Below are positions 21,792 through 24,855 of a DNA stretch of 24,855 nucleotides, piece after piece; position 1 is the first letter of the stretch, and every line of letters begins with the position of its first letter. This DNA is from Promethearchaeota archaeon (lineage in GTDB: Archaea; Asgardarchaeota; Lokiarchaeia; Sigyniarchaeales; SOKP01): NCBI GenBank assembly GCA_013375475.1, contig JABXKD010000056.1, forward strand, positions 1 to 24,855. Direction: 5' to 3'. A model generated the notes under the pieces. That model saw only the letters and a list, made by a program, of their open reading frames with translations. It had not been told where the DNA came from and did no database searches. Made by a program: the position numbers and the translations under genes.

Positions 21792-22895
21792 ATGCCAAGC
21801 ATTACTTCTCTAATATCTCAGAGAATTAAACCTTCTTGTGCTGTATGGGAAATCACCCTAAAATGCAACAGTAATTGCATCCATTGCGGATCAAAAGCAG
21901 GAAAAATTCGGCAAGATGAACTGAATACCGTGGAAGCGTTAAATTTAGTTAGGGAAATCCGTGATTGCGGTTTTAAAGGAGTTGCTTTGATGGGAGGAGA
22001 ACCATTAATTAGAGACGATTGGTATGAAATTGCGCAAGAAATTAAAAAAAATGGACTAGAATTATCAATTGTGACTAACGGATTAACTTTAAATGATAAC
22101 ATTCAAAAATTAAAAACTCTAAAAGTTGATTGCGTCTCACTTAGTTTAGATGGAGGATCGGCGAAAATCCACGATTACCTTAGGGGATCTCCTGGAGCAT
22201 TTGAAAAAACACTAAATGCGATTAACAGATTAAAAGAGGAAAAATTACCTGTCAGCGTTATTACCGCTGTAAGTAAAGCTAATTTAAAGGAACTAGATAA
22301 GATAAAAAAAATCTTGTTAGATCAGAATATTGCTTGGCAAATCCAAATAGCAATTCCTATCGGACGCTTTCCAAGGGAGTTAACGATTTCTAGGGAAGAG
22401 TTCTACACTGTGGGGTTATTCATTGCTATAAATGCTAAAAAGTATTCGTATAAAAGATTGCCAGTTATTGGTGCTCACTGTTTCGGTCATTTTTCAAGGT
22501 TCGTACCTAATTTAGGGTTGGATCCATGGATTGGATGTCAAGCAGGAATATCTGTTTTAGGTATTCAGAGCAATGGAAACATTAAGGGATGTTTAACTCT
22601 CCCAGATAAATTTATCGAAGGTAATATTAGAACGCAGAGTTTGAAAACGATTTTGGAAAATATAAGGTTAAAACAAATTCAAATTAAAGGTTATTGCGCA
22701 GATTGTGATTTAGCAAAATCATGTCGGGGAGGATGTTTGGGAACAGCTTATGCGATTAGAAAATTTGATGAGCCTTATTGTTTACGAGCAATAGAAAATA
22801 AAATATTTCCATCGAAACAATTCCCAATGAAAGGAAAATTGGATTCAACTATTTCATCAATAAGAAATATGTTTCATAACTTAATATTAAAATAA
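21792..22895 (+). CDS. Radical SAM/SPASM-domain protein, putative peptide/protein maturase
   Basis: CNSNCIHC (C25/C29/C32), MGGEP, SLDGG and HDYLRG motifs. SPASM cysteines follow C-x17-C ... Cx2Cx5Cx3C-x14-C. Confidence 0.93.
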   Translation: MPSITSLISQRIKPSCAVWEITLKCNSNCIHCGSKAGKIRQDELNTVEALNLVREIRDCGFKGVALMGGEPLIRDDWYEIAQEIKKNGLELSIVTNGLTLNDNIQKLKTLKVDCVSLSLDGGSAKIHDYLRGSPGAFEKTLNAINRLKEEKLPVSVITAVSKANLKELDKIKKILLDQNIAWQIQIAIPIGRFPRELTISREEFYTVGLFIAINAKKYSYKRLPVIGAHCFGHFSRFVPNLGLDPWIGCQAGISVLGIQSNGNIKGCLTLPDKFIEGNIRTQSLKTILENIRLKQIQIKGYCADCDLAKSCRGGCLGTAYAIRKFDEPYCLRAIENKIFPSKQFPMKGKLDSTISSIRNMFHNLILK

Positions 22896-22914
22896 TCTGA
22901 AAATAAAAGTTAAT

Positions 22915-22920
22915 GGAGGT
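22915..22920 (+). promoter_or_regulatory. Shine-Dalgarno GGAGGT for the first small paralog
   Basis: GGAGGT lies 9 nt upstream of the GTG at 22930. Confidence 0.65.
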
Positions 22921-22929
22921 AGCTTAAAA

Positions 22930-23181
22930 GTGATAGACAATCTTTTTCAATTAGTTAAAATAGGTAAAGATTTAGGATTGAACAAGAAAGAAATTACTAA
23001 AGTATTATTATTTAACAATTCTAAGAACCCAATACTATATACGATCTTAATGATAATAGCAATTATCTTTTCAGGGATAATCATTATATTTATCGCAATC
23101 GTAGTCTCAAGAAATATCTATCCTGCTGGAGCATTATATTCTACGGTAAAAACAAAAGATTTCAAAGCTAAAAAAAAATAG
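22930..23181 (+). CDS. Small single-pass membrane protein, paralog 1 of 3 (candidate rSAM substrate)
   Basis: KIGKDLGLNKKEI N-terminus, TM helix, NIYPAGALYSTVKTKDF tail. It has an SD and is homologous to the next two ORFs. Confidence 0.85.
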   Translation: MIDNLFQLVKIGKDLGLNKKEITKVLLFNNSKNPILYTILMIIAIIFSGIIIIFIAIVVSRNIYPAGALYSTVKTKDFKAKKK

Positions 23182-23218
23182 AATAGTAAATTTCATATAA
23201 GTAGAGTTTGTTTAGAAG

Positions 23219-23491
23219 TTGAGAAGAGAAATATTTCATATTTATAAGTTAGGAAGAGAATTAGGATTAGCTAAAAAAGATATAGATACGGTTTTTTCCT
23301 ATAACAGTTTTAAGGGCAAAGATATTGGGGGAATTATCGTAATTATAATAATCCTATTTTTAGGTTTTTTAATTATATTAGCTAGTTTAACTGCGATACC
23401 GAATTCACCGCGTGTTCCATCAAATAATACCTACCAAACAGGAACTCTTTATTCTACTGTCAGAATAAAAGATTTCAAAGAAAGAAAATAA
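23219..23491 (+). CDS. Small single-pass membrane protein, paralog 2 of 3
   Basis: KLGRELGLAKKDI, TM helix, NTYQTGTLYSTVRIKDF. Confidence 0.85.
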   Translation: MRREIFHIYKLGRELGLAKKDIDTVFSYNSFKGKDIGGIIVIIIILFLGFLIILASLTAIPNSPRVPSNNTYQTGTLYSTVRIKDFKERK

Positions 23492-23581
23492 ATTCAACAA
23501 TTATGTCGTGAAATTTTAAACTGATGGTAAAAATACAAAAATTAAATTAACTTCAAAGTTTGAGTGATTATTGAGAAAATA

Positions 23582-23827
23582 ATGAAAGATTTGATACAAT
23601 TACTTAAAATCGGGAAAGAACTAGGATTGTCTAAAAAAGAAGTAAGCAAAGTTTTATTCTTTGATAATAATAAGAATAGGGTCATATTCCTGATATTTTT
23701 AATTATAATCTTCTCAATTGCGGGCTATTTTATAATCTTAATTATTAAATCGACGGTAAACAACACTTACCCTAGCGGAACAAGATATTCAACGGTAAAA
23801 ATAAAAGACTTTGATAAAAAGAAATGA
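23582..23827 (+). CDS. Small single-pass membrane protein, paralog 3 of 3 (ATG 23582 preferred over GTG 23564)
   Basis: KIGKELGLSKKEV, TM helix, NTYPSGTRYSTVKIKDF. The ATG start roughly aligns with the starts of paralogs 1 and 2. Confidence 0.85.
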   Translation: MKDLIQLLKIGKELGLSKKEVSKVLFFDNNKNRVIFLIFLIIIFSIAGYFIILIIKSTVNNTYPSGTRYSTVKIKDFDKKK

Positions 23828-24855
23828 AGCTTAATATTGGTTGCGGAAAGAAATACGATCCCGATTATTGTAATATTGATTTGTACGAAGATTTAGTGGC
23901 TGATAGACTGATGTCAGCTTTTAAGCTTGAATTTAACGACAATACTTGCGATGAAATTAAAGCGATTCATATTATCGAACACTTAAGTTTTTTCGAAACT
24001 ACTTATGCGCTTAGTGAATTTTTTAGAGTATTAGAACCTAATGGGAAATTAATCCTTGAAACTCCTGATCTCGAGAAAAGTTGTCAGCATTATTTAGAAG
24101 CAGACGGAGAACAAAAAAAAGAGATATTAGGATGGTTCTTTGGAATTCCTCATAAAGGTCTGCAACATAAAATATGTTTTCCCCCGTTTCTCTTAATCGA
24201 ACTATTGGAAAATACTGGATTTGACAATATCACAAACTCGTTTTTTTACAACAATGAATCAATTCCCTCAGTCAGGTTTAAATGCTATAAAACTGGGAAT
24301 ATTGATGAAATTGAAGTATTTCAAATTATTTCTAAACTTCGTAAGGAGCTGCTCTTAAGCAATCAAATAGATTTTACTGATTCCTTCATAGTTAAAGAGC
24401 AAGAAGATATAGTAGCATTCATAGCTTCAAAGCTACTTGAGTTTAAAAAAACCAAAAAAAAAGAGTTAATTAAGGGATTATTTGTCGAATTGCTGTTTAA
24501 GTGGCCTAGAATCGTTAAAGCATTATTAATAGTTGTAGAGAATGAGAAATTTATCTCTAAAGTGGATCAATTAAACATTAAAGAAATATCAGAAATTTTA
24601 ATTGAATATAAAATTGTGAATATACTTTTTAATTCGATAACTGAAGGTGTCACAAATCCCGGAACGCAAAGAATTATCTATTATTCAGTAGAATCGTTTG
24701 CTAGGAAATTAATAGAAAACTTACTAAATTCCAAGGAAAATCGAGAAAAACTTATAGAGAAACTTGAAACTCTGAAAAATTCCTCTAAAGATTTAAGTAA
24801 CAAAATTTTTTCCACCAGTTTAATTGAGAGAAAAGCATTAAACACATTCTATCTC
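23824..24855 (+). CDS. Class I SAM-dependent methyltransferase with a long helical C-terminal extension (partial, runs off the window; absent from the ORF track)
   Basis: My translation is open for 344 codons: MKLNIGCGKKYDPDYCNIDL (motif I)...DEIKAIHIIEHL...FFRVLEPNGKLILETPDL. The ATG overlaps the paralog-3 stop (ATGA). Confidence 0.9.
   Translation, partial: MKLNIGCGKKYDPDYCNIDLYEDLVADRLMSAFKLEFNDNTCDEIKAIHIIEHLSFFETTYALSEFFRVLEPNGKLILETPDLEKSCQHYLEADGEQKKEILGWFFGIPHKGLQHKICFPPFLLIELLENTGFDNITNSFFYNNESIPSVRFKCYKTGNIDEIEVFQIISKLRKELLLSNQIDFTDSFIVKEQEDIVAFIASKLLEFKKTKKKELIKGLFVELLFKWPRIVKALLIVVENEKFISKVDQLNIKEISEILIEYKIVNILFNSITEGVTNPGTQRIIYYSVESFARKLIENLLNSKENREKLIEKLETLKNSSKDLSNKIFSTSLIERKALNTFYL

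Follow-up and report, generated by a model that had tools for sequence, protein, structure and literature searches.

Are the small membrane proteins encoded beside a radical SAM/SPASM enzyme in an Asgard archaeon the substrates of that enzyme? The question is raised by five genes at the right-hand end of contig JABXKD010000056.1 of Promethearchaeota archaeon (assembly GCA_013375475.1). The window, that is the whole stretch of DNA analysed here, is this entire contig (C240; 24,855 bp), and belongs to a 3.92-Mb genome of 288 contigs with 32.5% G+C. The genes encode a radical SAM/SPASM enzyme (rSAM), three small paralogues with a single transmembrane (TM) helix (SPs; sp1, sp2 and sp3) and a class I methyltransferase (MT). 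The cluster probably represents an archaeal maturation system resembling those of peptides that are ribosomally synthesised and then modified post-translationally (RiPPs), in which the Asgard precursors would have gained a TM helix between leader and core. This is based on computed gene content, on conserved gene order and co-occurrence, on the relationship of the SPs to soluble multi-core peptides, and on an rSAM clade of its own and catalytic motifs that are intact. We infer that the SPs are the substrates, and likewise what role each of their two conserved motifs plays, which chemistry takes place and what becomes of the product. A sequence-only reading of this DNA had proposed a RiPP-like cluster, and the conserved synteny, the co-occurrence, the rSAM clade and the existence of soluble relatives with a leader and tandem cores all speak for it.

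The gene cluster and its small proteins

The five open reading frames (ORFs) are found in the same orientation on the + strand, from position 21792 to the contig end:

21792–22895, + strand: rSAM of 367 aa, with Pfam matches to Radical_SAM, SPASM and Fer4_12
22930–23181, + strand: sp1, 83 aa, GTG start, proposed substrate or precursor
23219–23491, + strand: sp2, 90 aa, TTG start, paralogue in which the linker from the TM helix to the tail motif is 8 residues longer
23564–23827, + strand: sp3, paralogue of 87 aa from GTG 23564 or 81 aa from ATG 23582
23824–24855, + strand: MT, first 344 of about 440 aa, 3′-end open, with Pfam matches to Methyltransf_11 and Methyltransf_23

The genes are tightly packed, as the sequence-only reading had described. 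The first two intergenic gaps are 34 nt and 37 nt, the third is 72 nt, or the 90 nt given in that reading if sp3 starts at 23582, and the sp3 stop and MT start overlap in an ATGA (23824–23827). The sp1 GTG is preceded by a Shine-Dalgarno-like GGAGGT 8 nt upstream. Ratios of non-synonymous to synonymous substitution (dN/dS) of the SPs against their orthologues are 0.12–0.43 in five pairs (0.12–0.13 for sp1 and 0.25–0.43 for sp3), and the SPs are therefore considered to be real, constrained genes. In metatranscriptome run X1, 6% of the sampled words are present, and two contigs of 96–97% identity to the window correspond to positions 22464–22611 and 22757–23030, the second of which bridges the rSAM stop and the sp1 start. 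Co-transcription of rSAM and sp1 receives at most a weak hint from this run, because the contigs derive from a relative and the RNA library may contain DNA; stretches without coverage carry no information.

The composition put forward earlier, an rSAM/SPASM enzyme with three homologous proteins of 81–90 aa and a class I MT, is confirmed by the Pfam matches of both enzymes and by the pairwise identity of 43–50% among sp1, sp2 and sp3 (tblastn E 1e-11 to 1e-14). No further SP copies were found in the 3.92-Mb genome by tblastn. The central TM helix ascribed to the trio is also recovered: the centre of each SP is strongly hydrophobic, with a 19-residue Kyte-Doolittle maximum of 3.1–3.4, and the AlphaFold2 (AF2) model (mean pLDDT 75.5) comprises short helices at residues 2–14 and 19–29 and a single central helix at 34–62, with a tail modelled as flexible (pLDDT 54–59) after the confident TM helix.

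In sp1, an N-terminal helix-loop-helix motif is followed by the TM helix (approximately 34–60) and a C-terminal Tyr-rich tail containing Y64, G67, Y70-S-T-V and K76-D-F. Across the SPs, the N-terminal motif (N-motif) has a conserved G-x-x-L-G-L and then K-K-[DE], while the tail motif is Y-x-x-G-x-x-Y-[SG]-T-[VI]-x-x-K-D-F, with invariant or almost invariant Y-x-x and Y-[SG]-T and, in the SP alignment, a variable residue X3 after the first tail Tyr. In 31 SPs, with 2692 residues in total, only one Cys is present. No credible family was assigned to the small proteins by Pfam or NCBIfam, the sole matches being chance-level ones to Cation_efflux/CDF on the TM helix of sp2, and a protein atlas search with sp1 returned no usable match. 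The N-motif may perhaps resemble helix-extension-helix motifs (SAP, Rho-N or LEM).

Synteny in close relatives

When 61 related genomes were searched with a profile of the SP trio (E ≤ 0.01), 26 proved to contain relatives, with all strong matches in the genus of the window. Twenty closely related loci from 19 genomes were compared, and the order rSAM–SP(1–3)–MT is found in 17 of them, the SP copy number varying from one to three per locus. Of the others, L025 has all three genes in a changed order, and in L023 and L032 a contig end interrupts the locus. The conserved synteny with which the RiPP-like proposal was to be checked is thus present in close relatives, and is matched by the co-occurrence of SPs and rSAM described below.

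Half of the loci (10/20) additionally contain a module which consists of one SP paralogue (89–112 aa, with a longer basic C-terminus) and, directly after it, a multi-TM protein of about 200 aa without a Pfam family, here called c3. The module is placed after the MT or before the rSAM:

L013:10482–11375: SP-c3 module; likewise in L018, L019, L020, L021, L024, L026, L029, L031 and L032

The SP-c3 module was not found in the window's assembly, and its membrane protein matches only unnamed bacterial clusters in the protein atlas, with scores below 0.9. Judging from the closest relatives, L013 and L081, an SP and c3 pair probably lies beyond the right edge of the window. More genes had been expected past this edge, and relatives do carry the remainder of the MT there, often with a fourth paralogue and the membrane protein of about 200 aa.

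Locus L013 has a single SP, and between it and the MT is a 36-codon remnant of an sp2-like tail (L013:9027–9134; 43-aa open frame), which suggests a recent paralogue loss. Two genes downstream of its SP-c3 module is a Ras-family small GTPase gene (L013:11809–12360; Pfam Ras, 155 bits), paralogues of which (cluster c7) are found near five loci.

Co-occurrence and conservation across the phylum

In 400 genomes of the phylum, searched at E ≤ 1e-5 with the SP profile, E ≤ 1e-70 for the rSAM and E ≤ 1e-40 with the MT profile, the rSAM and the MT are each found in 105 genomes and the SPs in 68. The two enzymes occur together in 96 of the 114 genomes that have either; nine genomes have the rSAM alone, nine the MT alone, and 286 neither. 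Among the 68 SP-positive genomes, 65 contain the rSAM, 65 the MT and 62 both. One closed genome of 3.34 Mb, G229, carries the cluster at C1:118129–120847. No P-value is given for this co-occurrence because related genomes are not independent. In three genera of the window's family, the genomes positive for SPs are the same as those positive for the rSAM orthologue (30/54, 2/5 and 1/6), and in the window's own genus the two sets differ by four genomes, in all of which the gene abuts a contig end. Most of the discordant genomes that were checked are likewise explained by contig-end cuts. Recoding was considered for some rSAM matches with in-frame stops and was dropped; the match in L038 overruns the natural stop of its ORF by a few bases.

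The SPs are patchily distributed within genera (21/41 genomes in g1 and 30/54 in g28). The system is regarded as accessory because several essentially complete genomes of the genus, such as G008, G015 and G032, lack all three genes, and the patchy spread and the variable SP copy number both fit an accessory system.

Conservation extends to 20 more loci from other families, in which the rSAM is 39–53% and the MT 28–42% identical to that of the window. The two enzyme genes lie together in 18 of these distant loci, the other two ending at a contig edge, and SP-profile matches lie beside the enzymes in 16. The distant SPs are 107–226 aa in length and keep the same order of elements, namely an N-terminal G-x-x-x-G-L...E-[VI], a TM helix and, near the C-terminus, the motif T-Y-x-P-G-T-x-Y-[GA]-[ST]-I-x-P-[KR]-D-F. 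In families f13 and f2, tandem arrays of multi-TM paralogues with a similar N-motif and a C-terminal Y-G-V-Y are found. Arrays of three to six such paralogues, each of 146–174 aa with several hydrophobic segments and a Y-P-Y motif, lie beside the rSAM and MT genes at three loci:

L044:2377–5544: tandem paralogue array
L045:3767–5213: tandem paralogue array
L047:3295–4709: tandem paralogue array

One locus of family f7 encodes a 65-aa soluble peptide with the same Y-G-V-Y ending.

Soluble multi-core relatives

A HMMER search of 1.84 billion representative proteins with the SP profile returned only 83 clusters, 41 of them at E ≤ 1e-10, which can be divided by hydropathy into 62 TM-type and 21 soluble clusters. 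The soluble relatives (53–174 aa) comprise an SP-like N-motif and then one to six tandem copies (one to seven among soluble peptides of 53–140 aa) of a 15-residue unit, [DE]-[IL]-Y-K-[AS]-G-T-x-Y-G-T-[VI]-S-P-K, which is the SP tail motif, and they commonly end exactly at S-I-K-D-F. At least two cores are present in 11 of the 21 soluble clusters, compared with none of the 62 TM-type clusters. RiPP precursors with multiple cores are typically built in this way, with a conserved N-terminal segment and tandem cores, and are encoded beside more than one maturase paralogue. At the sequence level, the Asgard TM-type SPs belong to the same family as these soluble peptides, with a hydrophobic helix apparently inserted between the putative leader and core parts.

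In all three Thermoplasmatota loci (L053–L055), a precursor of 71–85 aa is flanked by three rSAM/SPASM paralogues that share 38–49% identity with the rSAM of the window. An ORF of the clostripain family (Peptidase_C11), a candidate leader peptidase, is found between the rSAM paralogues at L055:9459–10988; it is absent from L053, L054 and all the Asgard loci. Among 23 metagenome loci detected with an alignment of soluble precursors, 16 carry one to four rSAMs of the SP-associated clade and/or a homologue of the MT with its TPR region, although the number of independent cases is below 16 because L065/L068, L070/L071, L077/L078 and L066/L072 overlap or duplicate each other. The precursor gene precedes the MT gene in L062, while L077/L078 have two rSAMs, four precursors and an MT. 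Neither enzyme is found in the remaining seven loci, six of which are no longer than 3 kb. One metagenomic protein, P0168 (174 aa), contains three tandem units of N-motif plus tail motif without a TM helix.

The radical SAM enzyme

Pfam scores of the rSAM are 94.7 bits for Radical_SAM (cut-off 29.5) and 26.2 bits for SPASM (cut-off 21.5). In an alignment of 47 sequences, C25, C29 and C32 of the CxxxCxxC motif and G68-G69-E70 (GGE) are invariant, as are C249, C267, C302, C305, C311, C315 and C330 of the SPASM region; C230 shows at least 90% conservation. With the CxxxCxxC and GGE motifs and the seven-Cys SPASM region, the enzyme belongs to the radical SAM proteins with a SPASM domain.

In a tree of 39 proteins (IQ-TREE, "quick"), all 34 SP-associated rSAMs form one clade with SH-aLRT support of 98, and a branch of 1.43 substitutions per site parts them from the four AhbD/NirJ-like paralogues in the genome of the window. 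Only the clade is used here and not its position, because the tree was rooted on a long-branched paralogue. A grouping with the cofactor enzymes AhbC, AhbD or NirJ had been named in the sequence-only reading as an outcome that would count against the RiPP-like proposal; the rSAM instead has its own clade and scores far below their cut-offs. The best NCBIfam models are two peptide maturases, TIGR04103 (210.5 bits, cut-off 725) and TIGR03913 (170.1 bits, cut-off 591.75), followed by AhbD (162.8 bits, cut-off 500), NirJ2 (139.3 bits, cut-off 500) and MftC (124.1 bits, cut-off 265), and at a lower level by AhbC (110.7 bits, cut-off 650) and PqqE (72.2 bits, cut-off 381). The ranking is the same for the distant Asgard and Thermoplasmatota rSAM paralogues. 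By sequence, the nearest solved structures are SkfB, BlsE, PqqE, CteB, anSME and SuiB. A complex prediction for rSAM and sp1, run without controls, reached scores of 0.08 and 0.09 (mark 0.32) and has no bearing either way.

The methyltransferase

The MT is truncated at 344 aa because the window is the whole of contig C240, so that the end of its helical/TPR domain is lost; full-length orthologues have 430–451 aa, and that of L013 is 84% identical. The missing part and further genes were not found in the rest of the assembly. Its Methyltransf_11 score is 25.6 bits (Pfam cut-off 21.2), and full-length orthologues have a TPR_2 match in the C-terminal part. No RRE (RiPP recognition element) or PqqD domain was detected, Pfam giving MT and TPR matches only. 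The AF2 model (pLDDT 92.3, pTM 0.90) consists of a Rossmann domain (1–155) and a helical solenoid (163–426). The SAM-binding residues G6, G8 and D19 are invariant in 50 sequences, and the Gly-rich motif I, the acidic residue after strand 2 and the Rossmann-type fold are those of a class I methyltransferase. A Foldseek comparison of the model with the PDB returned only generic class I methyltransferases, down to E 1.5e-5, and therefore gives no clue to the substrate. The family is small, with 178 proteins at E ≤ 1e-3 among 5.8 billion, and the only names that its members carry, in Asgard metagenome-assembled genomes, are "hypothetical", "methyltransferase domain-containing" and "TPR repeat protein".

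Proposed pathway and alternative explanations

As in RiPP clusters, a candidate precursor gene lies beside that of a maturase (17/20 close loci and 16/20 distant ones), and the soluble relatives combine one N-motif with cores. In the proposed pathway, the N-terminal helix-loop-helix would serve for recognition as a "leader", to which either the rSAM itself or the helical/TPR domain of the MT may bind, and the C-terminal Tyr-rich tail would be the core. The rSAM would abstract a hydrogen from the tail, giving a radical cross-link or another C–H functionalisation at or next to Y64 and/or Y70, and the MT would then methylate the core. As the TM helix lies between leader and core, the product could be a modified membrane-anchored miniprotein, or the core could be exported through the helix. 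Thioether chemistry is excluded because of the single Cys among all SP residues. That Y-[SG]-T and/or Y-x-x would carry a three-residue cyclophane is at best a tentative guess, and is attractive because links from Tyr-C3 to C-beta made by SPASM rSAMs are known (PMC11002830).

Several observations weigh against such a pathway. The absence of an RRE, protease or exporter from the window, remarked upon in the sequence-only reading, is upheld by Pfam scans of the window proteins. In the rSAM itself, Pfam finds no RRE/PqqD domain and the radical SAM domain begins at residue 20, which leaves no space for one, and no protease or exporter is present in any Asgard locus examined. An RRE/PqqD-like leader-binding domain is common but not universal in rSAM-type RiPP clusters. 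All NCBIfam scores of the rSAM are far below the family cut-offs. In the f16 loci, rSAM and MT are adjacent with no recognisable SP, and L069, a metagenome contig of 7.9 kb, has a soluble precursor with neither enzyme. Conservation in the SPs is highest in the proposed core, which is atypical for RiPPs, and the repeated units of P0168 would fit a small folded module as well as a leader and core. The topology predicted from charge counts is ambiguous: in the 15 residues next to the TM helix there are on average 3.45 Lys and Arg on its N side versus 1.6 on its C side, but the net charge is +4.8 over the whole tail versus +3.2 over the N-terminal part. With an outward-facing tail, the cytosolic enzymes would have to act before membrane insertion.

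The same charge counts bear on a related explanation, in which the K-rich N-terminal part and the helix form a leader or signal anchor (N-in, C-out) and a modified tail of about 23 residues is released or displayed outside. The surplus of Lys and Arg on the N side agrees with this, as does the lack of a dedicated exporter or protease in the Asgard loci; the soluble relatives also look like ordinary short precursors, and a C-terminal ending is common to the TM-type and soluble forms. We nevertheless think it unlikely, as a cleavable signal peptide would be expected to be shorter than this helix of 22–28 residues, an alignment of 44 SPs has no conserved small-x-small cleavage motif after it, and the tail is strongly basic. 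It is distinctly possible, if not the favoured explanation, that the SPs are structural or functional membrane proteins which, as happens to full-size proteins, are permanently modified by the rSAM and MT with no product released, the helix-loop-helix and the tail lying on opposite faces of the membrane. Several Asgard families have the two termini and the overall architecture in common, an SP is paired with the multi-TM protein of about 200 aa in the 10 c3-containing loci, and P0168 repeats whole N- plus C-terminal units. An archaeal precedent is CrpC/CrpA, in which a SPASM rSAM has a neighbour of protein size as its target (PMC13692751). However, soluble homologues of 53–57 aa with tandem cores resemble classical precursors, and the distribution within genera is patchy.

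It is improbable that RiPP-type machinery was recruited in Asgard archaea for a tail that is never released and carries a permanent cross-linked, methylated Tyr-derived group on a single-pass membrane protein, with the multi-TM protein as partner. It is similarly improbable that such an unreleased tail would be a cofactor tethered by its own TM helix, or a redox or signalling head group, of an origin analogous to that of PQQ or mycofactocin. Still less credible, to the point of being very improbable, is an explanation in which the SPs are unrelated neighbours and the rSAM and MT make a small-molecule cofactor (AhbD/NirJ-like; a methylated tetrapyrrole or quinone). The rSAM does lack an RRE and does match the AhbD and NirJ2 models at 163 and 139 bits, but the peptide-maturase models score higher, both values fall far short of the cut-off of 500, and the genome has separate AhbD/NirJ-like paralogues outside the SP-associated clade. 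Moreover, SP, rSAM and MT genes co-occur and adjoin across deep divergence, and soluble multi-core peptides are encoded among one to four rSAMs of this clade.

Comparison with known systems

As judged from its sequences, the favoured RiPP-like system would work like an rSAM-type RiPP pathway, yet falls outside every curated maturase family tested. TIGR04103 (nif11-class peptide maturase 3) and TIGR03913 (GDL-motif peptide-associated maturase) align with the window rSAM over their full length, at positions 5–346 of 412 and 14–353 of 477, respectively. Shared features are the radical SAM core, a SPASM domain with two auxiliary clusters, adjoining small peptide genes and the lack of an RRE. However, scores of 210 and 170 bits against cut-offs of 725 and 592 place the window rSAM outside both families, the SPs have no relationship to the Nif11 or GDL peptides, and here an MT-TPR protein is the partner. 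No literature on TIGR04103 or TIGR03913 was found.

According to the review PMC11002830, the triceptide SPASM rSAMs XncB, OscB, MscB, YxdB and YhhB link an aromatic residue to the C-beta of residue i+2, as in Tyr-C3 to C-beta (YxdB and YhhB) or Phe to Ser (MscB). The SP core resembles triceptides in having two invariant Tyr in Y-x-x and Y-[SG]-T, and in being repeated in tandem in homologues. It differs in that the solved 3-CyFE enzyme ChlB matches the window rSAM at 34 bits, compared with 90 for SkfB, and XyeB- or FxsB-type models are not among the best 25 of 84 NCBIfam matches. The InterPro family of OscB may be equivalent to TIGR04103.

CrpC of Methanococcus voltae is an archaeal SPASM rSAM that acts on a neighbour, CrpA, larger than a typical RiPP peptide (PMC13692751). 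CrpA is Cys-rich with thioether (ranthionine) links and CrpC has an RRE, in contrast to the nearly Cys-free SPs and the window rSAM, which has no RRE. Core Cys residues that could act as thioether donors, as in sactipeptides and ranthipeptides, are not a feature of the SPs.

PqqE and MftC are SPASM rSAMs that act on short Tyr-containing peptides to give peptide-derived cofactors. PqqE is among the nearest solved structures, at 64 bits, and the MftC model scores 124 bits. The MftC score is however below its cut-off of 265, the SPs have no C-terminal Val-Tyr or Glu-x-x-x-Tyr, and there is no PqqD or MftB partner. With scores below the cut-offs and no PqqD match, the cluster does not belong to the mycofactocin or PQQ systems.

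No description of this system was found in open full texts; supplements and subscription journals lie outside that search, so an unseen bioinformatic listing could exist. General mentions of rSAM-type RiPP clusters in archaea were found, but no reference to this system, in the literature searched and in passages of PMC12144867 and PMC13635244. A precursor with a TM helix between leader and core was not found described in the literature searched. What would distinguish the system is a new precursor family, a dedicated rSAM subclade, a constant MT partner with a helical/TPR domain and, in the window's lineage, the putative placement of the TM helix between leader and core. If the favoured reading is correct, it would constitute a widespread, uncharacterised family of archaeal ribosomal peptide modification, with the rSAM and the MT each in 105 of 400 genomes of the phylum and with further members in Thermoplasmatota, and would enlarge the group of characterised RiPP-like systems from archaea, which is very small. 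The soluble multi-core homologues would then offer a tractable route to the chemistry of the membrane forms.

Neighbouring genes in the window

The remaining part of the window contains the following features:

19962–21536, − strand: 524-aa right-handed beta-helix/NosD-like protein with N- and C-terminal hydrophobic segments, divergent upstream of the rSAM gene
18993–19874, + strand: metallo-beta-lactamase-fold gene
11893–12732: second metallo-beta-lactamase-fold gene
5003–6427, 9704–10840 and 10957–11811 (− strand): two VWA (CoxE-like) proteins and a 284-aa AAA/MoxR-like ATPase
14348–14722: MscL gene (cluster c5)
500–2743, 2722–3528, 4092–4997 and 18366–18845: four ORFs of 159–747 aa without a Pfam family at E ≤ 1e-5

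ORFs of the beta-helix/NosD-like type are also found near related clusters (L021, L043, L045 and L053–L055), but this neighbour may be due to chance because it is absent from most loci of the window's own family. In 6 of 20 related loci, the cluster likewise has the metallo-beta-lactamase-fold gene seen at 18993–19874 as its upstream neighbour. The AAA/MoxR-like ATPase (cluster c4) recurs near the cluster in 10 related loci, and the MscL gene in nine.

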